A stretch of DNA of 50,656 bases. It comes from a virus. Taxonomy: Duplodnaviria > Caudoviricetes. The DNA lies in IMG/VR virus record IMGVR_UViG_3300031857_000291, positions 1 to 50,656 of that record; one strand, written 5' to 3'. The notes under the pieces were generated by a model. That model searched no databases, was not told where the DNA came from, and saw nothing but the letters and a program-made list of their open reading frames with translations. The translations under genes and the position numbers were made by a program. Shown here in pieces: positions 4,583 through 45,099 of this stretch; position 1 is the first letter of the stretch, and each line of letters opens with the position of its first letter.

Positions 4583-4672
4583 GTGCCGTGGCGCTACGCG
4601 CAGCGTGATGCCTACGTGCCCGAAGGTGCGGAGGAACCAGCGGATGATGTGGGGTGCTGGGCGGGGGGTCAT
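4580..4672 (-). pseudogene. Truncated 30-aa copy of the gene at 42728-42988
   Basis: MTPRPAPHIIRWFLRTFGHVGITL vs MTPRPAPHIVRWFLRTFGYGGITL; 4601-4672 matches 42917-42988 at 63 of 72 nt. Confidence 0.75.
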
Positions 4673-4674
4673 GG

Positions 4675-9180: not shown

Positions 9181-9287
9181 ATAAAACATTCGATCGACTG
9201 CCGAGGCTGAATTCATACCCCCCATGTTCGATTCTCAGTGCCCTGCTCTTGATTCTCAGTACCACGTGCGTGGTGGTAATCTGCTTG

Positions 9288-9397
9288 GATACTCAGTAGC
9301 TGAGATTCTGAGAACCCCGGCACTTTGATACTCAGTAGCTGAGATTCTGAGAACCCCGGCACTTTGATACTCAGTAGCTGAGATTCTGAGAACCCCG
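9288..9397. repeat. 39-bp tandem repeat, about 2.8 copies (GATACTCAGTAGCTGAGATTCTGAGAACCCCGGCACTTT)
   Basis: Units start at 9288, 9327 and 9366, each with a CTCAG-tag-CTGAG inverted repeat; related GATTCTCAGT at 9230 and 9251. Confidence 0.95.
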
Positions 9398-9553
9398 CAC
9401 ACGGGGGTGGAGACAGACGCCGCCCTTTACCTCTGCCTATGTCAATTTTGGGTTCCGGGTTCCTGGCGCTCAGGTCTGGGGCCCCTGGAGGTTCTGGTCG
9501 CTCAGGTCTAGGGATCAGGTTAGTGGGCGCTTACTTCTATTCCGGCGCACGCA

Positions 9554-9675
9554 CTAGGGGTTTCTACCTAGGGGTTTACCCTTAGGGGTTTACCCTTAAG
9601 GGTTTCCACCTAGGGGTTTACCCTGGGTGTTCCGCCTAGCAATCCGCATGCCAGGGGCATTAGGGTTTGTACCTA
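9554..9675. repeat. Five tandem 14-bp units (consensus CTAGGGGTTTACCC) plus a related site at 9661-9675
   Basis: Units at 9554, 9568, 9582, 9596 and 9610; same motif as the promoter box at 13473, 14504, 17530 and 28598. Confidence 0.9.
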
Positions 9676-10425: not shown

Positions 10426-10438
10426 GTGGGCACCTGAC

Positions 10439-10513
10439 CCCTGCCCTGCCCTGCCCTGCCCTGCCCTGCCCTGCCCTGCCCTGCCCTGCCCTGCCCTGCC
10501 CTGCCCTGCCCTG
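10439..10513. repeat. (CCCTG)15 perfect pentanucleotide microsatellite
   Basis: Counted directly; reads (CAGGG)15 on the minus strand. Confidence 0.97.
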
Positions 10514-10519
10514 CCCCCC

Positions 10520-10620
10520 GAGGACGCTGACCTGACGACCGACGACCGAGGACGCTGACCTGACGACCGACGACCGAGGAGGACGACCGACGACTTGACT
10601 GCGAGACCTGACGACCCGAG
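10520..10620. repeat. 28-bp direct repeat x2 (GAGGACGCTGACCTGACGACCGACGACC) with degenerate GACGACC units
   Basis: Copies at 10520-10547 and 10548-10575. Confidence 0.85.
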
Positions 10621-10707
10621 TCCAAGACTCTTAGACTTTTAGGCCTGCGTTCGAGGTCCATATACGCGTGCGCGGGCGTTTAAGACCTCAGCTCCAGGTG
10701 TTCAGCC

Positions 10708-10780
10708 GCTCGGTGGGGTGGGTCATTGTTTTGGAAACCAAGACCTCGGCGCTCGGTGGGAAGGTCATTGTTTTGGAAAT
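10708..10780. repeat. Imperfect direct repeat GCTCGGTGGG..GGTCATTGTTTTGGAAA x2
   Basis: Two copies visible in this interval. Confidence 0.8.
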
Positions 10781-10936
10781 AAAGTGCCTAAAGCGGGGGT
10801 TTTCTGCCCAGTTTTTGTATACAAAGTCATTTAACACCGAAAACCTGAGCCGGTAACACGCGCACCACACCGGAGCACGCTCTAGATACCAACCTGTTGC
10901 GCTCAAGCAACACAACACCTATCCGTGGCGGGGGCA

Positions 10937-11158
10937 GGTAACAGTGGTATACGGTAACAGTGGGGGTGCCATAGCGCTTTATATGGGGGTGTATATGATA
11001 CAGACATTAAAAGAATACATTGCATGCCACACATAGACACAACCCGTCTAATTTACTGTTACCACTGTTACTGTGCCCAAAACCCCTTGCAAAACAAGCA
11101 CTTAGCAGGTAACATCACATTATTTAGTGATGTTACCACTGTTACTCGCGATGTTACC
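10937..11158. other. Putative replication origin (GGTAACA iterons flanking an AT-rich core)
   Basis: GGTAACAGTGG at 10937 and 10953; ACTGTTAC at 11055, 11064 and 11138; 11-bp inverted repeat GGTAACATCAC/GTGATGTTACC (11108/11127). Adjacent to the primase 3' end. Confidence 0.55.
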
Positions 11159-13568: not shown

Positions 13569-13817
13569 ATGCTAAAAGACTCTTGGATAGTCGAGGTGAC
13601 TGACACCTTTGGCGGCGCGGCTAACTACGCCTGGGTGCGGCGGGCATTCCTCGCCACGCCGCCCGCCCTCACCCGCCGGAGCCTTGTGCGCCGCGCCAAG
13701 GCGCTGATGTGTTGGAGCGGCCGCCCCTGCGCCGTGTACGACCATGGCGACCAACTCGAGCTCCGCCCGCGCTGCTCCAGCGTTGTCATGTTCATCACCT
13801 ACGCGGGGCAGGCATGA
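13569..13817 (+). CDS. Hypothetical early protein
   Basis: TAAGGAG RBS; EVTDTFGGAANYAWVRR motif. Confidence 0.7.
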   Translation: MLKDSWIVEVTDTFGGAANYAWVRRAFLATPPALTRRSLVRRAKALMCWSGRPCAVYDHGDQLELRPRCSSVVMFITYAGQA

Positions 13818-13990
13818 TAGTGACGCGCTGCATTGCTCCACCCGTGCCCACGCGGCAATGGGACTGGGTGGCGTTCGTCCAGGGCGACGAGGAAGCCAAC
13901 GGCCCCACCGGGCGTGGCCCCACCGAGGCCGAAGCCCTGCTCGACTTGTGCGAGCAGCTAGCCCAGCGAGTTGCTGAGGGTAGAGAATGA
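13814..13990 (+). CDS. Hypothetical early protein (58 aa)
   Basis: ATGA-coupled; MIVTRCIAPPVPTRQWDWVA...GRGPTEAEAL. Confidence 0.65.
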   Translation: MIVTRCIAPPVPTRQWDWVAFVQGDEEANGPTGRGPTEAEALLDLCEQLAQRVAEGRE

Positions 13991-14250
13991 CCTACGCTGG
14001 CAAGTACCGCAGCGCGGGGTTCCGCCCCCGGGACGTACCCGCCACCGCAGTGGTGACTAAGCCGTTGCTCCGGGTAACTGAGCGCCCCGCGAGCCTCCAG
14101 GCGGCTGACACTACCTACGCTCCACGCCCCACGCCGGACAGGTACACGGGCACAGAGTGCATCGGCATCGCGGCCATGCACAAGTCCAACCTAGTGCCAG
14201 TGTTCACCCCCGCGCAGGCGGTTGACGCTGCCTCCATGCGGAGAGGGTGA
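13987..14250 (+). CDS. Hypothetical phage protein
   Basis: YTG..CIGIAAMHKSNLVPVF..A..MRR motif; coupled to the upstream gene. Confidence 0.7.
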   Translation: MTYAGKYRSAGFRPRDVPATAVVTKPLLRVTERPASLQAADTTYAPRPTPDRYTGTECIGIAAMHKSNLVPVFTPAQAVDAASMRRG

Positions 14251-14257
14251 CACCACC

Positions 14258-14506
14258 ATGTTGCTTGAAACACGCATTTGCGGCATCCCCTGCCGTGTGG
14301 ACGCCACCGTGCTTGTAGTGCCCGGGCGCATGAGCTGGAACGCCCCTAGTGACCTTGACTACTGGGGCTACACCGAGATTGACTTTACGGTGCTTGACCG
14401 GCGCGGCCGCCCCGCCCCCTGGCTGGAGCGGAAGATGACGGACTATGACCGTGAGCGGCTGGAGGAGGAGCTGCTCAACGCCCACACCAACTACGACCCG
14501 TACTAG
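14258..14506 (+). CDS. Hypothetical phage protein
   Basis: MLLETRICGIPC...LDRRGRPAPWLERK. Confidence 0.7.
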   Translation: MLLETRICGIPCRVDATVLVVPGRMSWNAPSDLDYWGYTEIDFTVLDRRGRPAPWLERKMTDYDRERLEEELLNAHTNYDPY

Positions 14507-22819: not shown

Positions 22820-24152
22820 ACTTGGAATAGCTCAGGCGTGCGCGGGCTTTCTGCTGCGTCCTGGCATGGGCAAGACCACTATCAGTTACGCGATAGTAAA
22901 GATACTGCGCGACAAACGATTGATTAAACGCACGCTGGTGATTGCTCCCCTGCGTGTGATCTACAACGTGTGGCCTAAGCAGAAAAATGACTGGGCCGAG
23001 TTTGCTGACCTACGCGTGCAGATACTGCATGGCAAGGATCGCGTAAAGAACTTCCACAACATAGACGCAGACATCTACTGCATTAACCCAGAGGGTTTGG
23101 AGTGGCTTGACACGCCCGAGCATCTTGCTTGGCTGCGGCAGCACTTCGACGTACTGATTGTCGACGAGTCCACCAAGTTTAAGAACACTGGCACTCAGCG
23201 GTTTAAGAGAGTGCGCAAGTTCATTCAACACTTTAAGCGCCGATACATTCTTACAGGAAGCTTCACCCCCAACGGGCTGTTAGACCTATTTGGACAAATT
23301 TACGTGTTAGATGAGGGCGCTGCACTGGGTAGGTTCATAACGCACTACAAGACCAAATACTTCTACCCCACTGACCGCATGGGCTACACCCTGGCCCCGC
23401 ACGCCTGGGCTGCGGATGAAATTGCGGGCAAGATTGCTCCCCTCACCCTAGTATTGGACCGTGAGGGCAATCTTGATATGCCTGAGCTAATATTTAATGA
23501 CATCTTAATTGACCTACCTGAAAACGCACGCAAGCAATACGCGCAGATGGAGGAGCACATGCTCGCCACGCTAGATAAAGAACTGGTGGTGGCCGCTAAC
23601 GCTGCGGTGGCGACCAGCAAATGCCGCCAGATTGCTAATGGATGCCTATTCACTAACGCGGGCGACGGCACGTGGACTGACATACACGACGCCAAGATTG
23701 ACGCTCTAAAAGACCTTGTTGAGGAGCTGAGTGGGGAGAGCTTGCTGGTGGTGTACGAGTTTAAGCCAGACTTAGAAAAGCTGCGCAAAGCATTCCCCAA
23801 TGCGGTGCTGCTCACTGGCGGTAGCGCCACCCAGGACGCCACCAACATCAGCCTATTCGCGGGCGGCTTTGTGCAGATGGGGCTGGGGCAATTCACCAGC
23901 ATCAGCCTTGGCATTGACGGATTGCAAAACAAGTGCCGCAACGTGGTGATGTTTGGCCTGACGTGGAACTTACAAGACTATAGCCAAACCATTGACCGCA
24001 TCTGGAGGCAGGGACAGAGGGCCGACACAGTAATCGTACACCGCATAATTGCCAAGGACACGGTTGACCAACGCGTGCTGCGCGTGCTCAACGCCAAGGA
24101 CTCCACGCAGAGTAGCTTCCTAACTCTGCTCAAGGGCATGCAGCGCCCATAG
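22761..24152 (+). CDS. SNF2-family helicase
   Basis: PRSYQ, PGMGKT, IVDEST, LTGS, GIDGLQ and RIWRQGQ. Confidence 0.9.
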   Translation: MSTTELRSWQPRSYQQQAVKLGIAQACAGFLLRPGMGKTTISYAIVKILRDKRLIKRTLVIAPLRVIYNVWPKQKNDWAEFADLRVQILHGKDRVKNFHNIDADIYCINPEGLEWLDTPEHLAWLRQHFDVLIVDESTKFKNTGTQRFKRVRKFIQHFKRRYILTGSFTPNGLLDLFGQIYVLDEGAALGRFITHYKTKYFYPTDRMGYTLAPHAWAADEIAGKIAPLTLVLDREGNLDMPELIFNDILIDLPENARKQYAQMEEHMLATLDKELVVAANAAVATSKCRQIANGCLFTNAGDGTWTDIHDAKIDALKDLVEELSGESLLVVYEFKPDLEKLRKAFPNAVLLTGGSATQDATNISLFAGGFVQMGLGQFTSISLGIDGLQNKCRNVVMFGLTWNLQDYSQTIDRIWRQGQRADTVIVHRIIAKDTVDQRVLRVLNAKDSTQSSFLTLLKGMQRP

Positions 24153-24193
24153 CCCCGCGCTATGGGGACGTGAGTCCCATTGCAAAAAACAAT

Positions 24194-24221
24194 TTGCTTT
24201 GGAAACTCAAATGGGCATAAT
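24194..24221 (+). promoter_or_regulatory. Promoter TTGCTT-N16-CATAAT for the DNA-modification operon
   Basis: AT-rich upstream element; 16-nt spacer as in the other plus-strand promoters. Confidence 0.6.
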
Positions 24222-24247
24222 TACCTCTCAGCAGCACTAGTTACACC

Positions 24248-25195
24248 GTGAATATCTTTTACCTTGACAAAAATCCGCGCCGTGCCGCAGAAATGATGCA
24301 CGACAAGCATGTGGTGAAGATGGTGCTGGAGACTGCTCAGATTTTGAGCACTGTGTGTCATCGCCACGGCTGCTGGGTACCGGAGATGTATCGGCCTACA
24401 CACGCCAATCATCCAAGTGTGTTGTGGGCTGGTGAGAGCGTAGAGAGCTTCCAGTGGCTGTACGCGCATGGACTGTGGCTGGGCAAGGAGTTTGAGTACC
24501 GCTACGGACACGCTCACAAAAGCAGTGGAGTAATCGACATAGTACCCTACTTCACTCCACAGGAGTTTCCGCAAGCGCACTGGACCGAGCCTCCGCAGGC
24601 TATGCCAGACGAATTTAAGATTGCCGGGGACAGCGTAGCTGCCTACCGAGCATACTACCTGGGGCGAAAGGTAGAGCAAAGTGGCTGGACACGTCGCCCC
24701 GTGCCAGCGTTTGTGTTAGAAGGAAAACCTGAAATCATGGCTAAGAAGCAAGTGAAGACCGCGCCGACGGCTTCTACCCCCGCAGCGGCAGACGCACCGG
24801 CTGCATCCTCCAAGCGTGGAGCGCCCATTGGTGCCCGTGGGCCCAAGGGCGTGGCGCTAGACGCGCTGATTACCCTCAAGTGCGAGGGCAACCCCAAGCG
24901 TCCGGGCAGCAAGGCGCACGCAGTATTCGCACAGTACGCGGATGGGATGACAGTGCAAGCCTTCCTCGACGCGGTGGGCGACGCCGCCACCCCCAACTTG
25001 GTGTACGACGCTGCGCACGGCTTTATCTCCATCGAGGGGTACGACCCCAAACTGGTGGTGAAGAAGGAGCGTGCCCCCAAGGAGCCCAAGGCTCCTAAGG
25101 CCCCGCGTGCCAAGAAGGCCGCTGCCACCGCCGCAGCTCCCACCGCCGCTGAGGTAGAGGTGGACGCCCTGGCCGTGGAAGAAGTGATCGACTGA
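24248..25195 (+). CDS. Pyrimidine-dimer DNA glycosylase (DenV/endonuclease V-like) fused in frame to a Lys/Ala/Pro-rich DNA-binding-like domain
   Basis: MNIFYLD...DKHVVKMVLETAQILST...HANHPS...QAMPD..AYRAYY; internal AAGGA RBS and ATG at 24737. Confidence 0.75.
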   Translation: MNIFYLDKNPRRAAEMMHDKHVVKMVLETAQILSTVCHRHGCWVPEMYRPTHANHPSVLWAGESVESFQWLYAHGLWLGKEFEYRYGHAHKSSGVIDIVPYFTPQEFPQAHWTEPPQAMPDEFKIAGDSVAAYRAYYLGRKVEQSGWTRRPVPAFVLEGKPEIMAKKQVKTAPTASTPAAADAPAASSKRGAPIGARGPKGVALDALITLKCEGNPKRPGSKAHAVFAQYADGMTVQAFLDAVGDAATPNLVYDAAHGFISIEGYDPKLVVKKERAPKEPKAPKAPRAKKAAATAAAPTAAEVEVDALAVEEVID

Positions 25196-25205
25196 CGGCA
25201 AGTAA

Positions 25206-25982
25206 ATGGACATCGTAATTCCAACCTACGGTCGTCCACAGCAGAGCAGGCAGCATACCCTGAACGCCCTGGTGGCGGACGGGTTGCTGCCTGTACTGAT
25301 TGTGCAGCACCGCGAACATCAGCTCTACAACTGGTATCATGGCCCGGTGCATGTACTACCGCCAGAGATACAGACCGTAGCCCCCACGCGGGACTACCTC
25401 ATTCATAACGAGGTGTGGAAGAGTCGCTTTGTCTGCATGCTGGATGATGACCTACACTTCTTTGCCCGTCGTAATGATGACCCCACCAAGTTCCGTCCTC
25501 TGGTGCCGTTTGAGCTCGGCCGCATGCTGGCGCAGCTTGAGGGTATGCTGGACCGTTTTCCGCACGTGGGCATTGCCCCCAGAGAGGGTGGTAACCGCAA
25601 CACGGAGCCATTCATGCTCAACACACGCATCATGCGCGTGCTGGGGTATGACCGTGAGTTTTTGCGCACCCACAAGGTGACGTTTGCCCCCATGCCGGTG
25701 ATGGAGGACTTCCACGTTAGCCTGCAACTACTCAAGCTGGGGCGGGACACCCTGGTGCTGAACAATTGGTGCAACAACCAAGCCGAGGGGAGTGACGCTG
25801 CCGGGGGCTGCTCAACGTACCGTACCCCCACTTTACAGACTGACGCTGCCCGCCTGCTAGCCGCGCTGCACACCCCCTACGTCAAGGTTGTGGAGAAAGA
25901 AACCAAGACTGCGTGGGGCGGCGGCACTCGTACTGACGTGACCATCCAATGGAAAAAGGCCCGCAACCATGCTACAGACTGA
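25206..25982 (+). CDS. GT-A fold DNA-base glycosyltransferase (TET/JBP-associated GT-like)
   Basis: IVIPTYGR, MLDDD (DxD), EDFHVSLQLL and GGCSTYR; sits in the base-modification cluster. Confidence 0.75.
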   Translation: MDIVIPTYGRPQQSRQHTLNALVADGLLPVLIVQHREHQLYNWYHGPVHVLPPEIQTVAPTRDYLIHNEVWKSRFVCMLDDDLHFFARRNDDPTKFRPLVPFELGRMLAQLEGMLDRFPHVGIAPREGGNRNTEPFMLNTRIMRVLGYDREFLRTHKVTFAPMPVMEDFHVSLQLLKLGRDTLVLNNWCNNQAEGSDAAGGCSTYRTPTLQTDAARLLAALHTPYVKVVEKETKTAWGGGTRTDVTIQWKKARNHATD

Positions 25983-26796
25983 GCTTGCCTACTGGATAAA
26001 CGAGCGCTGGCGCATCCGCCAGCAGCGGGAGCAGGGCGTGCCCCCACCCTGGAGTGAGGACAAGGTGTTCCGCACCGTGCGCTTCTGCAACGTGCATAGG
26101 GAGGACGACAAGGTAACCCGCTGGGTGCGCAGGTACTGGAACCGTGGCACCGATCCCGCGTGGCGCTTTGTGGTGGCGCGGCTCATCAACTGGCCTGATA
26201 GCTTGGAGGACATTCTCAACTGCGAGACCCCAGCGCGGATGCGAGACCGGCTTAAGGACCGCCGCTACACCCACGCCAAGGTGTTTACCAGCGCCTACAC
26301 GGTCAGCACGTGTGGACGCAAAATGGACAAGTTGGACTACGTATTTGACCACGTAGCCGCCCGCGTTGCGCAGGCACAGTGGGCAGGCACCCACTCCACA
26401 CTGGAGGATGCGTACACATGGCTCTCTAACATTGATGGGCTAGGTAGCTTCCTCTCTGCGCAGGTAGTTGCGGACATGAAAAACACGCACGGCCACCCCC
26501 TGCACGACGCAGCGGACTGGTGGACATGGTCAGCCCCCGGACCGGGGAGCCTGCGGGGGCTGAGCTGGTTTTTCCACCACAACCACCTGAATACAAGCGC
26601 CAGCCGCTACCACACAGACCTTGCTACGTGCCGCGAGGCAACTGACCCACTCATCAACCCGGAGGTGCCCCGCATCAGCAACCAGGACTTTCAAAACTGC
26701 TTGTGTGAATTCAGCAAGTGGTGCAACGTCACATATCTCAACGGACACGTTAGGAACAAGTATGTCCCAGTTCTTCCAAAGAGTGCAAGAGTTTAA
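25969..26796 (+). CDS. aGPT-Pplase1-like (HhH-fold) thymidine-hypermodification protein
   Basis: ERWRI...PPWSED.VF...RFCNVHREDDKVT; GLGSFLSAQVVAD; PGPGSLRGL; QNCLCEFSK. Confidence 0.8.
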   Translation: MLQTELAYWINERWRIRQQREQGVPPPWSEDKVFRTVRFCNVHREDDKVTRWVRRYWNRGTDPAWRFVVARLINWPDSLEDILNCETPARMRDRLKDRRYTHAKVFTSAYTVSTCGRKMDKLDYVFDHVAARVAQAQWAGTHSTLEDAYTWLSNIDGLGSFLSAQVVADMKNTHGHPLHDAADWWTWSAPGPGSLRGLSWFFHHNHLNTSASRYHTDLATCREATDPLINPEVPRISNQDFQNCLCEFSKWCNVTYLNGHVRNKYVPVLPKSARV

Positions 26797-27154
26797 CCGC
26801 GTGTTCGGTATGCCGGAGCCTGCGGTGCCGGTAATGCCCAACAGTCTACGCCTACGCCAGTTTAGAGACATGCTGCTGGCCGAGGTTAATGAGTACGACA
26901 CCGTACGAGAGCTTGAAGACTTTGCTGACTGGGTGGGGGACATCATCGTCTACTGCGCCAGTGAGGCTATACGCCACGGCATCCCAATCGAGAAGGTGCT
27001 CAACATTATCATGGCCAGCAATATGTCCAAGCTGGGGGAGGACGGCAAGCCTATCATCAACAACGCCACCGGCAAGGTGGAAAAGGGACCTAACTACTGG
27101 CGTCCCGAGAGCATGATTCAACAACTGCTTGCCATGGAAGGCGCAGAGAGATGA
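26762..27154 (+). CDS. MazG-like (DR2231-type) NTP pyrophosphohydrolase
   Basis: VQEFNRVF, EVNE, D..GD, SNMSKLGEDGKP and GKVEKGPNY. Confidence 0.85.
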   Translation: MSQFFQRVQEFNRVFGMPEPAVPVMPNSLRLRQFRDMLLAEVNEYDTVRELEDFADWVGDIIVYCASEAIRHGIPIEKVLNIIMASNMSKLGEDGKPIINNATGKVEKGPNYWRPESMIQQLLAMEGAER

Positions 27155-28122
27155 TTCACACCATAACTGCCAGAAACGTGAACACCGCGTTTGCTGACGC
27201 TTGGCACTACCTGCGGGTGTCCGGCGTAAAGGAGAACAGCCGTAACGGCCCCGTGCTGGTGGCTCCCGGTCCGGTAGTGACTACCTATCTGCACCCCCAG
27301 CAGCGGGTATTGTTCAACCCCCAGCGGGATGCCAACGCCGTATTCCATTTGATGGAGGCCCTGTGGATGCTCGCTGGTGAGAGCGACGTACAGTGGCTCA
27401 AGCAGTTCAGCAGCAACATCGCCACCTATGCGGAGCCTGACGGACACATTCACGGCGCGTACGGGGCCCGCTGGCGTAACTGGTTTGTTGACGGCGAGTA
27501 CGACCAGCTACACGTGATTATTGAAATGCTGCGACGCGACCCCACCACCCGGCAAGCCGTACTCCAAATGTGGGATCCCGGCAGTGACCTCGAGGGCGAC
27601 TGGCGGGACCGCCCCTGCAACACCGCCGTGTACTTTGATGGACGCGGGGGCCGCTTGAACATGACGGTTACCTGCCGTAGCAATGACATTCTCTGGGGCT
27701 GCTACGGAGCCAACGCCGTACACTTCAGCGTGTTGCAGGAGGTGGTGGCACATGGCGCGGATCTGCCGCTGGGGGTGTACAGGCAGTTCAGCAACAACTG
27801 GCACGCCTACACGGGTAATCCGATGGTGCAGCAGTTTCTAGACATGCCCCCGTTTGAGGAGCATGACTATTACCGTGAAAGTACCGTAGCTCTGCCCCTG
27901 CTGCAACCCGGCGAGCGTTACCAAGACTTCTTGCTCGACTGCGAGAATTTGGTGAGTAGCTACAGCACAATGAAAACTGAGTTTATGCAGCGGGTTGCCC
28001 TACCCCTGCGTGACGCTTACCTCGCCCGCAGGGAGGGGGAAGCAATCAACTGGCGTGAGTTGCCTGAGTGTGACTGGACGCTGGCATTTTGTGACTGGTG
28101 CAATAGAAGAGGAACCAAATGA
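27151..28122 (+). CDS. Thymidylate synthase homologue, probable dUMP hydroxymethylase
   Basis: SRNG, EALWMLAG, GAYG.RW, RQAV, catalytic PCN, RSND.LWG.YGAN and H.Y. Confidence 0.8.
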   Translation: MIHTITARNVNTAFADAWHYLRVSGVKENSRNGPVLVAPGPVVTTYLHPQQRVLFNPQRDANAVFHLMEALWMLAGESDVQWLKQFSSNIATYAEPDGHIHGAYGARWRNWFVDGEYDQLHVIIEMLRRDPTTRQAVLQMWDPGSDLEGDWRDRPCNTAVYFDGRGGRLNMTVTCRSNDILWGCYGANAVHFSVLQEVVAHGADLPLGVYRQFSNNWHAYTGNPMVQQFLDMPPFEEHDYYRESTVALPLLQPGERYQDFLLDCENLVSSYSTMKTEFMQRVALPLRDAYLARREGEAINWRELPECDWTLAFCDWCNRRGTK

Positions 28123-28592
28123 GCAACGCTAATGAAGTGCAGGTAGGTGGCGACCATTACCGCCAAACAGGCGCAGCACTCCAGCACTGGGACTTGGCTG
28201 TCCACTTTAAGTGGGACCCATTCCAGTACCAAATCACCAAGTACGTGATGCGCTGGAAGTACAAGCACAGCACCCCTGCCGAGCGGTTGAAGGACTTGCA
28301 GAAAGCCGCGCACTTTCTGCAAAAGTACATTGAGGTCGTGGCAGAGTACGACCCCTCCGCCGCAGCGCCCGCAGCGCCGCCCGTGCCGCAGCCCGCCGTT
28401 ACCCCAAGGGCTGATGCTGCGCTTGCCCAGCTACTTAGCAATGCTGACTGGCAGGTGGAGGGCTACTTTGGTGACCTCACCCAGCACTACCGCTGCCGCC
28501 ATTGTGGGGAAATGGTACGCGCCCCAGACGCAGATGCTGCTACGCAGATGCACGGTAGCTGCGCCACTCCCCGCTACGTTGGGCAGGACTAA
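28119..28592 (+). CDS. DUF3310 protein (T7 gp1.7-like nucleotide kinase domain) with C-terminal Zn-ribbon
   Basis: QVGGDHY...KYVMRW..K...DLQKAAHF; CRHC. Confidence 0.75.
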   Translation: MSNANEVQVGGDHYRQTGAALQHWDLAVHFKWDPFQYQITKYVMRWKYKHSTPAERLKDLQKAAHFLQKYIEVVAEYDPSAAAPAAPPVPQPAVTPRADAALAQLLSNADWQVEGYFGDLTQHYRCRHCGEMVRAPDADAATQMHGSCATPRYVGQD

Positions 28593-28597
28593 CCACT

Positions 28598-28640
28598 TAG
28601 GGTAACCCCCTATTGGTTAGACTAGTCTGCCTGCCATACT
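28598..28640 (+). promoter_or_regulatory. Box-type promoter: TAGGGTAACCCCCTA-TTGGTT-N16-CATACT, upstream of the heptose genes
   Basis: Conserved box and spacing. Confidence 0.65.
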
Positions 28641-28675
28641 GCCACCACAACGCAACCCCGCCACCCTCCCTAAGC

Positions 28676-28960
28676 ATGAAAACCTACATCGTCTACCACA
28701 TGCGCAGACACATTCCCCCCGTGGGGAGTATCCACATTGCGGCTGACCGAATCGGCCATGTGCCTGGGCACTCCAGGCGGGGTGCGTTGCTCGTCGCCAA
28801 GCTGACATTCCCGTTACTTGGAAACAACCTTGCCGTAGGAGAAGATGAAAGTGATGACAAGTCTGATGGACGTGATACGCAAGCCTACGCCTTTGCGCAT
28901 CGCAACAGCGGCGCTAGAACAAGCCGAGAGGGACAGGCTAACCGCCGTCGAACAACGTGA
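28676..28960 (+). CDS. Hypothetical protein
   Basis: First ATG after the promoter; overlaps the next ORF and has a weak RBS. Confidence 0.35.
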   Translation: MKTYIVYHMRRHIPPVGSIHIAADRIGHVPGHSRRGALLVAKLTFPLLGNNLAVGEDESDDKSDGRDTQAYAFAHRNSGARTSREGQANRRRTT

Positions 28961-29075
28961 GTACTACGCAGCTATGGAGGAGATGCTGATTCGTCGCATC
29001 TCCCGCCTGCGCCGCGAAGTTGTGCAACTGACTCAGGAGGCTGAGAATGAGAAAAAAGATTCTAGTGGTGGGTGA
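28845..29075 (+). CDS. Hypothetical coiled-coil protein
   Basis: AGGAG RBS; overlaps the kinase start. Confidence 0.65.
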   Translation: MKVMTSLMDVIRKPTPLRIATAALEQAERDRLTAVEQREYYAAMEEMLIRRISRLRREVVQLTQEAENEKKDSSGG

Positions 29076-29943
29076 CTCCATGGAGGACGTGAGGCTGGAC
29101 TGCGAAGTGTCCCGCCTCTGCCCCGAGGCTCCGCTGCCCATCTACGACATTGACCAGCGCATCCACTACGCTGGGGGCGCTGCCAACGTGGCGTTGAACA
29201 TTGCCGCTATGGGCGGTGAGGTTACGCTGCTCACCGCAAAGGCAGAGCGCACCGAGCTTGACACGCTATACGCCAGTGGAATTGGCAGTGTGGTGACCAA
29301 AGTCACCACGGCCAACACGGTAAAGACCCGCGTGTTCACTGCTGGAGTGATGCGTGCCCGCATGGACGATGACTATATCCTCGATGAAGATGAGAGTGAG
29401 GATATGCTAGCCCTGTTTATTGATCAGATCAAGCACGCTGATGTTGTAGTGTTTAGCGACTACGGCAAGGGCGCTCTGCGTCACGTAGCCAATATGCTAG
29501 ACTACTGCACCGGCAAGCTGACGCTGGTGGACCCCAAGGGGGATAACTGGGCTAGGTATGAGAACGCCACGTACATCAAGGCCAACGCGGCCGAGTGTGC
29601 TGCGCTACAGCAATCTCCAGCAGAGCTTGCCAAGTGGCTGAACAACCGAGCCATTGTCCGCACTGCGGGGGCCGCCGGGTATGAAATCAACTACGTGGGC
29701 GATGAGTTCGGCAAGCTCTACCCTGCGCACAAGGTGGCTGCTGTGGACCCCACCGGGGCGGGGGACAGTTACCTCGCCGCTATGACGGTGGGCCTTGCCG
29801 CCGGACGCACCCTACAAGCCGCGTGCAGATTGGGCAGCATTGCCGGAGCCCTGGCAACCACCCACGTGGGGACAGCAGTAATCACTTCAACGGAGATTAA
29901 CGAGTGCTTGAAAGAACACTATCCGAGCATAGCGCCGCTGTAG
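29047..29943 (+). CDS. hldA: D-glycero-beta-D-manno-heptose-7-phosphate kinase (HldE/RfaE domain I, PfkB family)
   Basis: ILVVGD.M.D, SRLCPEAP.P, GGAANVALN, T.KTR, SDYGKG, LVDPKG and DPTGAGD. Confidence 0.85.
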   Translation: MRKKILVVGDSMEDVRLDCEVSRLCPEAPLPIYDIDQRIHYAGGAANVALNIAAMGGEVTLLTAKAERTELDTLYASGIGSVVTKVTTANTVKTRVFTAGVMRARMDDDYILDEDESEDMLALFIDQIKHADVVVFSDYGKGALRHVANMLDYCTGKLTLVDPKGDNWARYENATYIKANAAECAALQQSPAELAKWLNNRAIVRTAGAAGYEINYVGDEFGKLYPAHKVAAVDPTGAGDSYLAAMTVGLAAGRTLQAACRLGSIAGALATTHVGTAVITSTEINECLKEHYPSIAPL

Positions 29944-30473
29944 AAAGCCTGCGGGCGCAGTGGACGCTGCTTAAGAGCATGGCGCACATGCTTGCTGGCT
30001 GCATCAACCGTGGGGGCACCATCTACCTCTGCGGTAATGGGGGCAGCGCGGCGGACTGTCAGCACCTAGCGGCTGAGCTGGTGGGGCGCTTCCAGCGGCC
30101 ACGGCTGGGGTTCCGCGCCGTAGCGCTGACAACTGACACCTCAATACTCACTGCCGTGGGCAACGACTATGGTTTTGAGCATGTGTTTAGCCGTCAGGTA
30201 CGGGCGCTGGCTCGGCCGGGGGACGTGCTTATGTGTATCAGCACCAGTGGCAACAGCGCCAACGTGGTGGAAGCAGCCCGCGCCGCCACCGAGCTCGGCG
30301 TGCCCACACTGGCGATGACTGGTAGAAACAAGAGCATGCTCAGCCGCGTAGCCGCCGCCACCCTGCACATTGACAGCGAGGTTACCGCCCGCGTGCAGGA
30401 AGCGCACATTGTTGCTGCGCACATTCTATGCGAGTTGATTGATGGGGGACTTGATGAAGAGAGTTTGGACTAA
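29904..30473 (+). CDS. gmhA: Sedoheptulose-7-phosphate (phosphoheptose) isomerase
   Basis: CGNGGSAADCQHLAAELVGRF, NDYGFEHVFSRQV, ISTSGNSANV and RVQEAH. Confidence 0.93.
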   Translation: MLERTLSEHSAAVESLRAQWTLLKSMAHMLAGCINRGGTIYLCGNGGSAADCQHLAAELVGRFQRPRLGFRAVALTTDTSILTAVGNDYGFEHVFSRQVRALARPGDVLMCISTSGNSANVVEAARAATELGVPTLAMTGRNKSMLSRVAAATLHIDSEVTARVQEAHIVAAHILCELIDGGLDEESLD

Positions 30474-30882
30474 CGGCTGCTTTGACCTGCTGCACGCGGG
30501 GCACGTTACCTTCTTGCAGCACGCGGCCTCCTTGGGAACGCTGACAGTGTTTCTCAACAGTGATGCAAGCATCTCAGCATTGAAGGGGGTGCATCGCCCC
30601 ATCACTCCCCTGGTGTACCGCCGCAAGATGCTAGAGGCACTCCGCTGCGTCACTCACGTGCATGTGTTTGATGGCCCCACCCCCGTTGAACTTTGGGCTA
30701 CACTAGGCACCGTGCCCGACATGTACGTCAAGGACAGCGAATGCGACATCGTACACTCAGCGGAAGGTCAGTGGATGCTGGAGCGGGGGGTGGCAATCAC
30801 CGCGCTGCCACGTCTACCCGGCATTAGCACCACACTAATCGAGCAGCGTATCCGTGCCGGAGTACCGAGCAGCGTTTCTTGA
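30454..30882 (+). CDS. hldC: Heptose-1-phosphate nucleotidyl(adenylyl)transferase (HldE/RfaE domain II)
   Basis: TNGCFDLLHAGH (HxGH), NSDASI..LKG..RP and GISTT. Confidence 0.87.
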   Translation: MKRVWTNGCFDLLHAGHVTFLQHAASLGTLTVFLNSDASISALKGVHRPITPLVYRRKMLEALRCVTHVHVFDGPTPVELWATLGTVPDMYVKDSECDIVHSAEGQWMLERGVAITALPRLPGISTTLIEQRIRAGVPSSVS

Positions 30883-31369
30883 CAGGGACGGAACCCTGAT
30901 AAAGGACGTCCCCTACATCAACGACCCCACGCAAGTCGAGCTACTGCCTGGGGTCGTTAGAGCTTTGCGTAACTTGATTGAGTGCGGCTACCTGTTGATT
31001 GTGGTTACCAACCAGAGTGGGATAGGACGCTGGCGCATCACTAAGCCGCAGTACGTGGCCGTTCAGCGGCGGATGCTAGACTTACTGGCGCAGCATGGGG
31101 TGTACATCACCGCTACGTACTACTGCCCCCACACGCCGGACGCTGGCTGCGCCTGCCGCAAACCCGGCACTGAGCTATTTGAGCGTGCCGCCCGAGACTT
31201 TGACATTGACTTGTCCCAAAGCCTAATGTTTGGAGACAAGGAGAGCGATATGGTGCCCTGTGTGGGCACTTGCATCCGGGTGCCAAAGGACGCGTCCTGG
31301 GCTGCGTGGTACCGCCCCCGCTACCCTAGCCCCACCCCACCTGTAAAAACGCAGCCCGGGGGCGTCTGA
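30854..31369 (+). CDS. gmhB: D,D-heptose-1,7-bisphosphate phosphatase (HAD)
   Basis: FLDRDGT, VVTNQSGIGR, YCPH....CACRKP and GDKESD. Confidence 0.9.
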   Translation: MPEYRAAFLDRDGTLIKDVPYINDPTQVELLPGVVRALRNLIECGYLLIVVTNQSGIGRWRITKPQYVAVQRRMLDLLAQHGVYITATYYCPHTPDAGCACRKPGTELFERAARDFDIDLSQSLMFGDKESDMVPCVGTCIRVPKDASWAAWYRPRYPSPTPPVKTQPGGV

Positions 31370-31400
31370 TAGCTCTGGCGGGGCACTACCTGCCGCGTGG

Positions 31401-31763
31401 CTAGTAGCTCCACACTGTGGGGGCGCTGCGCAGGTCCAGATGTACGAAGCGTCCGGAGCCCTTTTGCTGCACCCCGATACCCGTAAAGCCCAGGTGCATC
31501 GCCAGGCGAAGCAGCTCGTGGGCATCGGCGCCCTGCACGCCGACATCGCAGGCCAAGCCGGTAGAGTGCATCCCCGGCTCGGCCTTGGCCTTCTCCACCG
31601 GGTGATCCGGACAACGATAGCCCGAGGTAATCGTCATCGGCTTGCGGTAGACATCCCGCAGCGCCTGCAATCGACCCATAAACTCGGGCCGCATTTCCTG
31701 CTTGCCGCAGTGCCGGCAGCGGAACTCAGCTTCCGTGAAGTTGGGGTAGTCGGACCAGTTCAC
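31401..31763 (-). CDS. Endolysin, peptidase M15A family
   Basis: NF..AEFRC, ITSGYRC, HSTGLACD and FVHLD. Confidence 0.88.
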   Translation of the reverse strand: MNWSDYPNFTEAEFRCRHCGKQEMRPEFMGRLQALRDVYRKPMTITSGYRCPDHPVEKAKAEPGMHSTGLACDVGVQGADAHELLRLAMHLGFTGIGVQQKGSGRFVHLDLRSAPTVWSY

Positions 31764-32161
31764 TTGGTCACCCCCTTGAACTTCTCCATCGTCCTGTACC
31801 CTCCGATGCCAAGCAGGCCGGTGACTACAACCCATAAAAGGTCGATGTTCACGTCCGGGGGTTCCGGCCAGCCTTTAATCCTAGCCACCCACGTCAGCAC
31901 CGGCTGAACAATCGTGGCATAAGCAAAGCCTAAGCCGCCAGTCCACATAAACAGCGGTCGCCCCCCAGCCACAAACAGGCTTGGGTGTTGAGCCTCGCGG
32001 GCGTTGATCTCAAGCTGCGCGATGGTCTGCTTCAGCTCGCCTTCGGCGGCCATGCGGACCAATTCCATCTCCGCTTCGCGTTTCTTCTCCGGATCAGGGA
32101 TGAAACGGTCCAGCAGCGTTTTTCCGACCTCAAGGATCGGCCCGAGGATGAGTGGGTTCAT
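31760..32161 (-). CDS. Holin (3TM GTA-holin-like)
   Basis: IN.REAQHPSLFVAGGRP and GLLGIGGYRTMEKFKG; adjacent to the endolysin. Confidence 0.85.
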   Translation of the reverse strand: MNPLILGPILEVGKTLLDRFIPDPEKKREAEMELVRMAAEGELKQTIAQLEINAREAQHPSLFVAGGRPLFMWTGGLGFAYATIVQPVLTWVARIKGWPEPPDVNIDLLWVVVTGLLGIGGYRTMEKFKGVTK

Positions 32162-32526
32162 TTACGCGCCTCTGACTTGATGTGCTCCCACGCGGCCACG
32201 CACAGAAACACCACGATGGCCCATAGGCCAGCCGCCGTGACTTTCGAAAACGCATCGCTCTTGGCCTTGTCCCACCACGATGCGTTGGCAATGGCCTTCT
32301 CGTGGGCTAGACGGTGCCCGTGCGGATCGCCCCCGGGGAATGCCTCCGAGAACGTGTGCTTGAGCATGGCAAACTGCTTGTCCATGTGCGCAGTCAAATG
32401 CTGTTCGTGAGACTTGAGGGCCGCGCTGACGGTCTTCTCAATCATCAGTGCCACCTTGTCCTCGGTCAGGGCCGACTGGCGCCGTTCTGTGCCGCTGTAG
32501 TCCGTCATCGGGGAGAGCTCCATCAC
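32158..32526 (-). CDS. Membrane protein of the lysis cassette
   Basis: One C-terminal TM helix; FPGGDP.GHR.AHE motif. Confidence 0.6.
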   Translation of the reverse strand: MMELSPMTDYSGTERRQSALTEDKVALMIEKTVSAALKSHEQHLTAHMDKQFAMLKHTFSEAFPGGDPHGHRLAHEKAIANASWWDKAKSDAFSKVTAAGLWAIVVFLCVAAWEHIKSEARK

Positions 32527-42731: not shown

Positions 42732-42988
42732 TCTGCTCTCCTAGCTTCGATTTCGAGCGGGTTGTTCCGGTAGCCGTGCCGCAGCAGGCCCCACAGGTAT
42801 GTCACATACCACCGCACCACCCCCATCCGCTGGGCCTGCTGCCAGTGGCACTGCTCATGCCTGATGAGCGGCGCTTCGTTGATGCGCTCGGCCAGGATGA
42901 AGATGCCCAGCGGCGGCAGCGTGATGCCTCCGTACCCGAAGGTGCGGAGAAACCACCTAACGATGTGTGGCGCTGGGCGGGGGGTCAT
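42728..42988 (-). CDS. Small HExxH (DUF4157-like) protein
   Basis: RHEQCHWQQ...GY.NNPLEIEAR. Confidence 0.7.
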   Translation of the reverse strand: MTPRPAPHIVRWFLRTFGYGGITLPPLGIFILAERINEAPLIRHEQCHWQQAQRMGVVRWYVTYLWGLLRHGYRNNPLEIEARRAE

Positions 42989-45099
42989 AGTGAACCAAAG
43001 GCAGACAATATCCAGCTAGAACCGTTGTACTCAACATCGCACCATTGACCTGCTGCAAGCGCCTTCAACGGGCCGGTCCCGACGTTCAAATTAAACGCGC
43101 CAGTCGCAGCGGCGGTGCGAACGATGCGAAATTTTGCACCGTTGTACGCACCAGTTGTGTCTAGTCCAGCAGATCGATTTCCAGTCAATGCAGTGTTCCA
43201 GATGGAGGTTATGGGATCGCCAACATAAAGTATGGCGTCGGCGTTTCCATAATCCGCAGAAACACGCTCGGTCCTTGAAACAGTTGGGCCAGAAAACGGA
43301 GTTTCAGCTCGCATCTGGCGGTTATTTTCCCAATAGACAGTGTTTGCGGTAGGCGAACCGTCCTGCAAGTACGAGACAGATCCCGCAACACCGTTTCCAA
43401 CAAAAGACACATAGTTGTTCGCCAAAGACACATATGTGCCGCCTGTATTTCGGATACCGACTTTCGCTTCAACGGTCACATCATCAACGTGTACCCAGTT
43501 GTCAGACACGTTGAGCCCATAACAGGTGGTAGTCCAGATGCACGCGCCAGATGTGTTGGGGTCATCCGTGAAGGTCAATGTGTTACCAGTCACGCGAGAC
43601 TGCGGAACATCTACGCCACCAAAGCGGTCAACGTAGATTGAGCCATCGACCAAACGATTCCCGGTAATGACAATGCCGCCTCGTGTCAGCGCCGTGTCCT
43701 GCGCGCAGTAGATGCCATCGCCCACCGTGCGACTGGTTCCATTCAACAGCGCAATGATGTCGTTGTCGGCAATCAGGCCGTTCCTGGAGTTTGACGCTGG
43801 CGCAGAAGGGTGGTTTGAACAGCGAATCACATGCTGCGCGTAGCCCTTGCAGTGGTTGCCGATGATGCTGAAGCCGTCAACGCCTTGCATGAAAATGCAG
43901 GCGTAAGGGTCAGTGCCAGCGCCAGTATTCTCAAACCGGTTATTGGAAACGCTAAGGCGAGCGCCATGACTACCTTTAAGCGCCAAGCCGCCATCAATGG
44001 CGTATCCGATATTCCCATTTATGATGCCGTTTTCGCAAAACGAGAAGTAAAATGGAAGGTTGCTTTGCGGAGCTAGTGAATTTGTCGTATACCCGTAATT
44101 CCCTTCGACAACAAAATTTCCGACATACAACCCGTAGATTGCGCCACCATAATCAGAAAACTCGACAGAATTACCCAACCACTTGGCATCCGTTCCGTAT
44201 TTGAAAGCAACTTCCGAGTGATGCGATGTTGCGTCACCTGATCCTTTGTTTTTTACGCGCACATTGGAAATCGTTGCGCCTTTGAAAAATCGAATCTGGA
44301 CACTGTTGCCGTCCCAGTTGTCGAACAAGCAGCCATTGACGAAATGGTCTTTTGTGTAGCCCGCTCCTGTGTAGGTGTCTCCACCAGCAAAGACACCAGT
44401 AATACGGATGCCCTCACTCAAGCCATTGAGAAAATATCCTCCGCTGACCCGTACCCGATTGCCGGTGAAGTTGAAGATTGCGTTTGAGTCTTCGCCGTAT
44501 ATCACAACAATAGGCAGCGCGACCGTGTTCAGAATTCTGGATGTTCCAAAATCAATTTCAATGTCACTGGACGCAGTAGTGACGGCAGCGTTCACGAGGT
44601 AAGACCCCGTTGGGAAAACCACTCTTTTGCCGCTTGATGCCGCAAACGCCGCCTGAATCGCCGCCGTGTCATCGGCCACCCCATCGCCCACCGCGCCAAA
44701 ATCTAGCACGCTCACCACCTCTCGCATTTTGCTCTGCGCCGTGCGTGTGACTGCGCCGGTGCCAGCCTGAATGAAGCCTACGAGCGAAGATCCCCCTGGC
44801 TGAGAAAGTGCTGAGGACACAGCCGCTTCGTCGGTCACCACGTTGTCTACGGTCCAAATCTCAGAGTCGTTAGAGTCCGTAAGCCTGAACTTGTAGCTCG
44901 CAGCAGGGAGCCACACGTTGGCTTCCCCACGGCTGTCAAGAATTACGGGGTTGGTGTTGGCAGCGGTCTGTGCCTGATCAACATACGTGGTCTGGGGGGT
45001 GAGCGCACCTGCTGAGTACGTGTACAGCTTGCCGCCGACCAGGGGGTTGCCGTTAGCGTCAAAAAACTGGATTTTGGGGGTGGGAGTCAAGCTGGCCAT
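42985..45099 (-). CDS. Tailspike 2 (virion-anchor N-terminus + beta-helix depolymerase)
   Basis: QFFDANGNPLVGGKLYTY...NTNPVILDSRGEA; SVLDFGAVGDGVADDTAAI; beta-helix repeats. Confidence 0.87.
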   Translation of the reverse strand: MASLTPTPKIQFFDANGNPLVGGKLYTYSAGALTPQTTYVDQAQTAANTNPVILDSRGEANVWLPAASYKFRLTDSNDSEIWTVDNVVTDEAAVSSALSQPGGSSLVGFIQAGTGAVTRTAQSKMREVVSVLDFGAVGDGVADDTAAIQAAFAASSGKRVVFPTGSYLVNAAVTTASSDIEIDFGTSRILNTVALPIVVIYGEDSNAIFNFTGNRVRVSGGYFLNGLSEGIRITGVFAGGDTYTGAGYTKDHFVNGCLFDNWDGNSVQIRFFKGATISNVRVKNKGSGDATSHHSEVAFKYGTDAKWLGNSVEFSDYGGAIYGLYVGNFVVEGNYGYTTNSLAPQSNLPFYFSFCENGIINGNIGYAIDGGLALKGSHGARLSVSNNRFENTGAGTDPYACIFMQGVDGFSIIGNHCKGYAQHVIRCSNHPSAPASNSRNGLIADNDIIALLNGTSRTVGDGIYCAQDTALTRGGIVITGNRLVDGSIYVDRFGGVDVPQSRVTGNTLTFTDDPNTSGACIWTTTCYGLNVSDNWVHVDDVTVEAKVGIRNTGGTYVSLANNYVSFVGNGVAGSVSYLQDGSPTANTVYWENNRQMRAETPFSGPTVSRTERVSADYGNADAILYVGDPITSIWNTALTGNRSAGLDTTGAYNGAKFRIVRTAAATGAFNLNVGTGPLKALAAGQWCDVEYNGSSWILSAFGSL

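Follow-up and report, generated by a model that had tools for sequence, protein, structure and literature searches.

The window analysed here is the whole of the IMG/VR virus record IMGVR_UViG_3300031857_000291 (50,656 bases), which comes from an uncultivated phage, is rated ~91% complete and has no end repeats. We put at about one in two the probability that this phage genome holds two separate glycosylation systems: a DNA-modification module, built around a TAGT-type GT-A glycosyltransferase (GT), a HMUDK_hel protein and a thymidylate-synthase (TS) homologue, and a cassette of heptose genes that serves a GT9-like glycosyltransferase encoded among the head genes. Gene identities were taken from matches at Pfam cut-offs and from PHROG and NCBIfam matches, key residues from alignments, and context from synteny and co-occurrence; from these we infer the chemistry, the sugar donors and the targets of both systems.

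In the scheme that we favour, the TS homologue would turn dUMP into 5-hydroxymethyl-dUMP (5hmdUMP) and a MazG-like enzyme would presumably deplete dTTP/dUTP, so that DNA would take up 5-hydroxymethyluracil (5hmU) instead of T. Once the DNA is replicated, the TAGT-type GT-A enzyme and the HMUDK_hel protein would put a sugar on the hydroxymethyl group, giving a glycosyl-5hmU similar to base J. The donor would most likely be a host nucleotide sugar, for instance a UDP-hexose, because many relatives carry the same module without sugar genes. The heptose cassette, in turn, would most likely feed the GT9-like glycosyltransferase (48356-49441), which would act together with an S-adenosylmethionine (SAM)-dependent methyltransferase (50036-50557) in the head-morphogenesis block and whose target, judging by position, would be a virion protein. 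This is the simplest account of the cassette, because the GT9 family classically uses ADP-heptose.

Both the DNA-modification run and the heptose cassette sit on the + strand replication arm (~15.3-31.4 kb), along with genes for DNA polymerase A, a PD-(D/E)XK nuclease, a VRR-NUC protein and a SNF2 helicase, while the - strand carries lysis, tail, internal and head genes, an SU10-type portal and the terminase. No near-identical relative of the region was found by megablast among 50,697 phage isolate records.

A predicted module for the modification of 5hmU in DNA

An earlier note on this DNA had described a same-strand run of genes, and Pfam and PHROG matches place these genes where the note had them. 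The GT (25206-25982, +) matches PF20691 over residues 1-201 (E 1.7e-19, 71 bits against a cut-off of 27.5) and PHROG 842, and is predicted to glycosylate 5hmU in DNA. It is followed by a clade 1 aGPT-Pplase protein without a P-loop (25969-26796, +), which matches PF18723 (E 6.6e-31, 108 bits against a cut-off of 25), a family now named HMUDK_hel and formerly aGPT-Pplase1. A MazG-like nucleoside triphosphate pyrophosphohydrolase (26762-27154, +; PHROG 671 'nucleotide pyrophosphohydrolase', E 3.9e-20, no Pfam match) comes before the TS homologue (27151-28122, +; PF00303 Thymidylat_synt, E 4.4e-23; phrog_5131, E 7.6e-93), predicted to be a dUMP hydroxymethylase, that is, a 5hmdUMP synthase. The run ends with a small protein (28119-28592, +; phrog_5839, E 8e-17) that resembles the N-terminal part of PHROG 'nucleotide kinase' families; its label of DUF3310 in the earlier note found no Pfam match, with PHROG matches only, and we call it DUF3310-like.

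The motif RSNDILWGCYGAN that the earlier note had read in the TS homologue is found as written within 27151-28122. The catalytic Cys (E. coli C146) is kept: when the protein is aligned by HMMER with solved structures, DRPCN falls opposite ALPPCH of the M. tuberculosis ThyA. An Asp occupies the position of E. coli L143, three residues ahead of the catalytic Cys, and the Asp at the E. coli D169 position is retained. After a one-residue insertion, Asn (N188) stands at the E. coli N177 position, which is Asn in M. tuberculosis ThyA and Asp in the CMP hydroxymethylase MilA. All four residues (C156, D153, D179 and N188) are invariant in 7/7 phage TS homologues, those of the window, three of its relatives, YuA, PhiJL001 and a Manatee Spring virus whose protein is annotated 'pyrimidine hmase'. 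In the available text of PMC13326640, Asn or Asp at position 177 decides between uracil and cytosine, hydroxymethylation accompanies an acidic residue at 143, which admits water, and D169N is the mark of 5-hydroxycytosine (5hoC) synthases. The closest TS homologues from isolates (~40% identity) are those of Bordetella MW2/CN1 phages and of YuA/M6-like Pseudomonas phages, a group whose DNA modifications derive from 5-hydroxymethyldeoxyuridine (5-hmdU), and the homologue of the window is of one family with the TS of YuA-like phages and of the relative G014; its key residues reappear in YuA and G014, whose TS genes adjoin 5-hmdU DNA kinases. Because the catalytic Cys, the Asp at L143, D169 and the Asn at N177 are all present, we read the TS homologue as being of the dUMP hydroxymethylase type, with 5hmdUMP as its predicted product. 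Two other readings were considered and rejected: a 5hoC synthase, given that D169 is kept, and a dCMP hydroxymethylase, given that Asn occupies the N177 position.

The GT carries the R...DDD...EDF signature, with R10, D80-D81-D82 and D168-F169 invariant in the nine GTs aligned (9/9); E167 is present in the window and is replaced by Asp in G008 and G010. The available text of a preprint by Pyle et al. (bioRxiv 10.1101/2023.12.21.572611) gives R...DDD...ED[Y/F] as the signature of DNA glycosyltransferases of the GT-A type in phages, with models similar to the base J glucosyltransferase. For the wider context we used a profile search of IMG/VR with the GT, which left 80 TAGT loci out of 143 relatives, and counted neighbours within 10 kb. 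A TS homologue is found in 77/80 of these loci and an HMUDK_hel gene in 75/80, so that the GT, HMUDK_hel and TS genes form a conserved and widespread module; the DUF3310-like gene is also a conserved member of the module (65/80), and a MazG-like homologue is present in 9/80. The pre-replicative 5hmU pathway and the DNA glycosyltransferase proposed in the earlier note are thus supported by the TS residues, the GT signature and the linkage of the module.

In the cultured phage PhiJL001, from a marine alphaproteobacterium, the gene of a TS homologue resembling dUMP hydroxymethylases lies one gene away from that of a 'glucosyl transferase' which is TAGT-like and 36% identical (L106, 6001-8484); this phage is a candidate isolate for finding glycosyl-5hmU directly.

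The slot upstream of the HMUDK_hel and TS genes is filled by different enzymes in different relatives. It holds a TAGT gene in the window and in G008, G009, G010 and G034. In G015 it holds a gene for a 302-aa GT-B protein similar to the T4 beta-glucosyltransferase (beta-GT), of which G060 has a homologue with 79% identity. The G015 protein is grouped by the ESM Atlas with T4 beta-glucosyltransferase clusters (feature score 0.95-0.96) and has a TM-score of 0.7-0.8 to GT-B enzymes; these genes (L099 of G015, 13594-14502, -; L192 of G060, 2434-3339, -) have no Pfam or PHROG match and adjoin HMUDK_hel, TS and the heptose cassette. In G014 the slot contains an amino-acid:DNA transferase (AADT, PF18724) and a P-loop 5-hmdU DNA kinase (PF18748), and this gene set is an amino-acid/polyamine route in place of the glycosyltransferase. 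This complete relative (L193, 6326-9955) encodes the AADT, the P-loop kinase, HMUDK_hel, TS and an HD phosphohydrolase, and shares head genes with the window. The order kinase, clade 1 protein and TS is also seen in phages Sonora (gp42) and YuA, where gp14 is the clade 1 protein, and the HMUDK_hel gene of the window has the same position as Sonora gp42 and YuA gp14, beside TS.

Within the window, the P-loop 5-hmdU DNA kinase (PF18748) and AADT (PF18724) families are unmatched at E up to 1, no TET/JBP gene was found and a credible Walker A motif is absent: both matches to the pattern fall in short frames, of 21 and 51 codons, one of them across a stop. A kinase/AADT route was accordingly rejected for this phage. 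From the swap of TAGT, GT-B and AADT plus kinase in the slot, and since the window lacks kinase, AADT and TET/JBP, it would follow that HMUDK_hel is a common 5hmU-DNA partner for whichever enzyme fills the upstream slot, and that the GT of the window glycosylates 5hmU in DNA. HMUDK_hel may also have a catalytic role of its own, as suggested by an invariant Cys-Glu pair (C246-E247) that resembles the catalytic pair of clade 2 aGPT-Pplase enzymes; the clade 1 homologue is dispensable in the in vitro M6 reaction.

No PDB match was found by sequence for the GT, for HMUDK_hel or for the GT9-like protein. The idea of a GT-HMUDK_hel fusion received no support from the four longer HMUDK_hel proteins: three have an AAA_25 domain, and the fourth (583 aa) has PF18723 as its sole entry in the precomputed list and is unlike the GT by hhalign.

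Directly upstream of the GT, the tightly packed run opens with a gene (24248-25195, +) whose N-terminal domain is Pyr_excise-like (PF03013, E 9.4e-07), of the T4 endonuclease V family, and whose product ends in an Ala/Pro/Lys-rich tail and matches phrog_624 'DNA binding protein' (E 1.3e-52). A homologue is present within 10 kb in 14/80 TAGT loci.

The heptose cassette

The order hldA-gmhA-hldC-gmhB reported in the earlier note is found at 29047-31369 and covers four pathway steps. The hldA gene (29047-29943, +) matches PfkB (E 3.3e-26) and TIGR02198 rfaE_dom_I (E 7e-52, below the trusted cut-off); gmhA, for a sedoheptulose-7-phosphate isomerase (29904-30473, +), matches SIS_2 (E 8e-31) and TIGR00441 (E 7.6e-54); the hldC-like gene, for a heptose-1-phosphate adenylyltransferase (30439-30882, +), matches CTP_transf_like, TIGR02199 rfaE_dom_II (E 8.5e-31) and phrog_7878; and gmhB, for a heptose-1,7-bisphosphate 7-phosphatase (30854-31369, +), matches HAD families and NF006506 (E 4.8e-40). 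All four genes score above Pfam cut-offs, and their best NCBIfam matches are the four equivalogs, all of them under the trusted equivalog cut-offs. No match to PF01370, for an HldD epimerase, was obtained in the window at E up to 1, so that the product would be the D,D-heptose form.

A gap of 450 bases separates the DUF3310-like gene from hldA and holds a small conserved open reading frame (ORF) of 76 aa (28845-29075, +), which has homologues before hldA in L003-L005 (80-84% identity) and in G060 (49%) and no PHROG match. The earlier note had put the sugar genes under a phage promoter, which the sequence scans do not bear out: a sigma-70 scan of 24000-32500 gave one site where 2.5 would be expected and nothing ahead of the cassette, and the sites from sigma-70 promoter and terminator scans are no more numerous than in shuffled sequence. 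The gap does contain, with one mismatch, a copy of a 14-nt motif, TAGGGGTTTACCCT (28599-28612, -), as a candidate regulatory site; the motif has 8 matches in the window, against 0.17 expected.

A GT9-like glycosyltransferase among the head genes

The earlier note called the gene at 48356 a GT9. This did not hold as a direct match to Pfam or PHROG, with no hit to PF01075 at E up to 5 or 10, and it did hold in that the protein (48356-49441, -), encoded in a module of head genes, is GT9-like by predicted structure and by its homologues. There are 2814 homologues at E up to 0.001, and PF01075 is precomputed in 22 of the 120 listed. By TM-score (0.71) the Atlas model of the protein resembles a cluster in which 78% of the members carry PF01075, as well as a bacterial cluster named 'LPS heptosyltransferase II'. 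Sequence matches of the profiles are weak, to PDB 3TOV (E 0.089) and to E. coli WaaF (E 0.028, probability 1.7%); comparing the profile of the GT9-like protein with those of WaaF and WaaC of E. coli gave nothing significant, and the profile of the family of fused methyltransferase and GT9-like proteins (MT-GT9) retrieved from the PDB only methyltransferases and, weakly, one GT9 entry. No tblastn match to the GT9-like protein was found among the 50,697 phage isolate records. The family has four conserved C-terminal cysteines, which suggests a metal site.

Most of the 120 homologues listed are of ~520 aa, with a SAM methyltransferase domain fused at the N-terminus. In the window, the two parts are split into separate genes, with an 88-aa gene (phrog_7595) in between; the SAM-dependent methyltransferase (50036-50557, -; PF08241, E 3.1e-12) is 52-63% identical to the fused domain of G056 and G060. 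The pair is placed between portal and head-closure genes. The GT9-like enzyme is most likely the consumer of the ADP-heptose; its use of this donor is assumed from the family, for which ADP-heptose is the classical donor, and is supported by co-occurrence with the cassette.

Co-occurrence of the heptose genes

The heptose genes were sought around the GT, around the GT9-like gene and from gmhA itself. Heptose genes occur within 10 kb in 5/80 TAGT loci, those of the genus of the window, G008 and G010, all of which are phages bearing the GT9-like gene. The whole records chosen by the GT include 27 of at least 30 kb (20 of them at least 90% complete) with TAGT and TS, and these contain neither the GT9-like gene (0) nor gmhA (0). 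Conversely, all 11 heptose-bearing records of at least 30 kb in the phage group have the GT9-like gene (11/11; G000, G001-3, G008, G015, G060, G038, G052, G054 and G056), and 7/11 have the TS module. The four records G038, G052, G054 and G056 combine heptose genes and the GT9-like gene without TS, TAGT, HMUDK_hel, TET/JBP or the GT-B of the G015 type, and their cassette adjoins the terminase and portal genes. For example, G056 (38.3 kb, rated 100% complete) shares the head genes of the window, including MT-GT9, and does not share its polymerase or helicase, and has hldC, hldA and gmhA upstream of the terminase. Likewise, G053 has the GT9-like gene without TS, HMUDK_hel, TAGT, TET/JBP or the G015-type GT-B.

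A locus search with the single HldA protein returned nothing, and a GmhA alignment was used in its place, from which we obtained 80 loci and searched 26 of them as whole records. The cassette lies beside terminase or portal genes in 9 of the 80 loci. Six of the 26 whole records carry the GT9-like gene (G038, G052, G053, G054, G056 and G060); among these six, TS and HMUDK_hel are present only in G060 and TAGT in none. In a tree of gmhA from all 80 of these loci and the window, with none dropped, cassettes labelled 'next to TS' and 'next to terminase' each need two label changes, and there are no well-supported branches against a single origin of the cassette. In the sample chosen by the GT9-like gene, which comprised 43 records of at least 12 kb out of 80 loci, gmhA is present in 7/43, TS in 11/43 and TAGT in 7/43.

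The DNA module is also found without the heptose pathway in close relatives. In the complete G034, whose record has terminal repeats, the GT9-like gene occurs with TAGT, HMUDK_hel and TS, and gmhA is missing; G009 keeps the GT, HMUDK_hel and TS and lacks hldA, gmhA and hldC. The TAGT nearest to that of the window, its own genus set aside, is the one of G009 (60% identity), so that heptose-bearing phages do not have mutually nearest GTs. In all, the survey of whether the heptose genes travel with the TS and GT genes or with GT9, suggested in the earlier note, shows them largely co-segregating with the GT9-like gene, and the note's proposal of heptose as the DNA sugar finds no support in co-occurrence (5/80 loci, 0/27 records, against 11/11 for the GT9-like gene).

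Two further loci are of interest for the heptose genes. In the place of the cassette, G009 (L104, 9558-10961) has an uncharacterised 224-aa ORF, a small ORF (10677-10961) and a separate gene for a GmhB-like HAD phosphatase (39% identical), and this region is possibly the remnant of a lost cassette. The 94-kb phage record G068 (L165, 8206-15859) groups, within 8 kb, gmhA with genes for a GHMP kinase, a radical-SAM/SPASM enzyme, an FkbM methyltransferase and part of a TAGT-like GT, in what looks like a GDP-heptose-type pathway near a GT-A enzyme. The partial GT is ~5 kb from the other genes of this group, and TS, HMUDK_hel and the GT9-like gene are all missing, making this one weak example of a GT-A gene near heptose genes.

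Alternative roles for the two systems

Several observations weigh against a cassette dedicated to the GT9-like enzyme, and most of them point to the proposal of the earlier note, in which phage-made ADP-heptose, alone or besides its use by the GT9-like enzyme, is the donor of the DNA GT and virion DNA carries heptosyl-5hmU (a 'heptose base J'). The assignment of the GT9-like protein to its family is itself weak, with no direct Pfam match and with the values given above for WaaF (E 0.028, probability 1.7%). In eight loci (L107-9, L111, L112, L113, L166 and L176) the cassette follows immediately downstream of the TS module and in the same orientation, an arrangement seen in the window, G001-3, G008, G010, G047, G015 and G060, and in L174 it follows a DUF3310-like gene, the sole module gene found there. 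This adjacency spans lineages with two unrelated DNA GTs, TAGT and the T4 beta-GT-like enzyme of G015 and G060. The latter belongs to a class with a precedent, because the available text of Pyle et al. (bioRxiv 10.1101/2023.12.21.572611) describes a T4 beta-GT-like phage enzyme that, with phage-encoded sugar-activating genes, heptosylates 5-hydroxymethylcytosine (5hmC); similarly, phage-encoded sugar supply for DNA has a precedent in RB69 and DLP3 (PMC13326640). Among the GT9-bearing records, gmhA is present in 6/8 of those with the TS-plus-GT cluster versus 1/35 of the others (G038), an enrichment that can be explained by shared ancestry and fragmentary records, and gmhA is absent from G014, the relative with the kinase/AADT route. 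The 27 TAGT phages that lack a GT9-like gene belong to a different, ~40-kb type, with GTs 39-56% identical to that of the window, and do not constitute an independent control. Finally, one column of the TAGT alignment (N132 of the window) is exclusive to the GTs of heptose-bearing phages, although other partitions of the alignment yield 0-6 separating columns and this column is not informative on the donor. Against heptosyl-5hmU stand the 75/80 related GT loci with no heptose genes nearby, the 0/27 for gmhA in GT/TS records without the GT9-like gene, the four phages (G038, G052, G054 and G056) that have the cassette and GT9-MT without any TS, GT or HMUDK_hel, the GTs of G034 and G009 that occur without the heptose pathway, and the comparison of the GTs, in which those from heptose-bearing phages are not closest to one another. 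GT9 enzymes classically take ADP-heptose as their donor, and no GT-A enzyme using it is known to us. On balance we consider heptosyl-5hmU unlikely in the window phage. If it were present, it would be the first heptosylated thymine derivative, the T4 beta-GT-like enzyme would do the same in the lineage of G015 and G060, and the GT of the window would be, to our knowledge, the first GT-A enzyme using ADP-heptose.

The role of the DNA module could also differ from that proposed, with 5hmU left unglycosylated or otherwise modified, the GT-A enzyme acting on another acceptor and HMUDK_hel performing a chemistry of its own on 5hmU. The module of GT, HMUDK_hel and TS is known from genes alone, our literature search for native glycosyl-5hmU in phage DNA gave kinetoplastid papers or nothing relevant, and both the dispensability of the clade 1 homologue in the M6 reaction and the Cys-Glu pair of HMUDK_hel agree with such a role. 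We nevertheless find it quite improbable, in view of the full set of signature residues of the DNA GT-A family in the GT, its linkage to TS in 77/80 loci, and the filling of its slot, in relatives, with enzymes whose known or predicted substrate is DNA containing 5hmU or 5hmC. As for the cassette, it might serve neither phage GT and be instead an auxiliary metabolic module that alters the host lipopolysaccharide (LPS) or envelope, or the sugar-phosphate flux of the infected host, as assumed for cyanophage heptose genes. The isolated phages with relatives of hldA are indeed mostly cyanomyoviruses (25-29% identity), with kinase, isomerase and nucleotidyltransferase genes (32 records); the cassette is found at module borders, where accessory genes tend to gather, and may own a regulatory motif (28599-28612). 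Its restriction, within the phage group, to records with the GT9-like gene (11/11 of those of at least 30 kb) and its absence from the GT/TS records without this gene (27/27) make an auxiliary role very unlikely.

Other features of the window

In the gap between the divergent arms there are three tandem copies of a 39-nt unit, ~5 tandem 14-nt units of TAGGGGTTTACCCT and ~18 copies of CCCTG (9284-9400, 9555-9624 and 10429-10526), and the 14-nt unit appears again at 10200, 13474, 14504, 17531 and 28599. These arrays are probably an origin or a regulatory region with a phage-specific binding site. Two genes for tailspikes of the pectate-lyase type (4675-6495 and 42985-45099) share segments with 76-87% identity at and near their 5' ends (4600-4675 with 42916-42991, and 6232-6357 with 44656-44781), and look like paralogous spikes with a common attachment part. 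The ORF at 207-1289 (+; 360 aa) is rich in Arg, Gly and Ala, has a low third-position GC content (0.54) and no family match; it probably does not represent a gene, and the - strand may carry the true ones in this stretch.

Comparison with known systems and implications

The DNA module is a variant, with a glycosyltransferase instead of the kinase plus AADT, of the thymidine hypermodification clusters of the Pseudomonas phages M6, YuA and PaMx11, Salmonella phage ViI and Acinetobacter phage SH-Ab 15599 (Lee et al. 2021, PMC8989533; PMC13458397). As in those phages, the TS (~39-40% identical) is of the dUMP-hydroxymethylase type and shares the key residues, the gene just upstream of it is of the clade 1 aGPT-Pplase/HMUDK_hel family, and 5hmU would be made before replication and then modified on the polymer. 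In contrast to the M6/YuA type, the window has a GT-A gene in the place of the P-loop 5-hmdU kinase and the AADT, and its predicted product is an O-glycoside rather than an amine or amino-acid adduct.

The GT shares with phage GT-A (TAGT) enzymes and the kinetoplastid base J glucosyltransferase the PF20691 domain, the R...DDD...ED[YF] signature and a predicted transfer to a 5-hydroxymethylpyrimidine in DNA. GT-A genes beside TS homologues had already been noted in metaviromes by Pyle et al. (bioRxiv 10.1101/2023.12.21.572611), with uracil products going unreported in the available text. By the same text, the characterised phage GT-A enzymes act on 5hmC made by a methyltransferase and TET, whereas the 5hmU of the window would come from dUMP with no TET involved, and an obligatory HMUDK_hel neighbour is not among the features described there for their clusters. 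This preprint also updates the statement in the earlier note that no heptosylated DNA base had been described, since mono- and di-heptosyl-5hmC were made with a metagenomic phage cluster. As far as its text goes, this 'contig 53' resembles the window in having a phage-encoded route to an activated heptose beside a DNA glycosyltransferase, and the T4 beta-GT-like GT-B of G015 and G060 is of the same general class as its enzyme. It differs in that its sugar genes are an HAD/APH fusion and a cytidylyltransferase, its glycosyltransferase is a GT-B, its base is 5hmC and its pathway was reconstituted, whereas the window has the four-step GmhA/HldA/GmhB/HldC route, a GT-A enzyme and a cassette that co-occurs with a GT9-like gene.

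In the pathway for ADP-heptose of the Gram-negative LPS core (GmhA, HldA/HldE, GmhB and HldC, with WaaC/WaaF as transferases), the same four steps are present and the transferases share the fold of the GT9-like protein, but the window lacks HldD, which gives the L-glycero form used in LPS. Unlike the LPS heptosyltransferases of family GT9, the GT9-like protein is very divergent, is fused to a methyltransferase in most relatives and is encoded among head genes. For the arabinosyl-5hoC of RB69 and DLP3, the available text of PMC13326640 likewise describes an enzyme of the TS superfamily that makes the acceptor base and sugar-nucleotide genes in the cluster; the TS homologues of those phages have D169N, N177D and an acidic residue at L143, whereas the window keeps D169 and N177, and 5hoC is thus not expected in its phage.

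If the DNA module works as we infer, a large group of uncultivated phages makes glycosyl-5hmU, with the chemistry of kinetoplastid base J, by a pre-replicative route, and the swap of GT-A, GT-B and kinase plus AADT beside an invariant HMUDK_hel-TS pair gives clade 1 aGPT-Pplase proteins a testable role as a shared 5hmU-DNA partner. Methyltransferase-GT9 is a core gene of the head module in a large phage group, some lineages of which have their own ADP-heptose supply, and this suggests that virion components carry a heptose-based modification so far undescribed. Both systems are relevant to how phages evade restriction and recognition, and to enzymes useful for DNA labelling.

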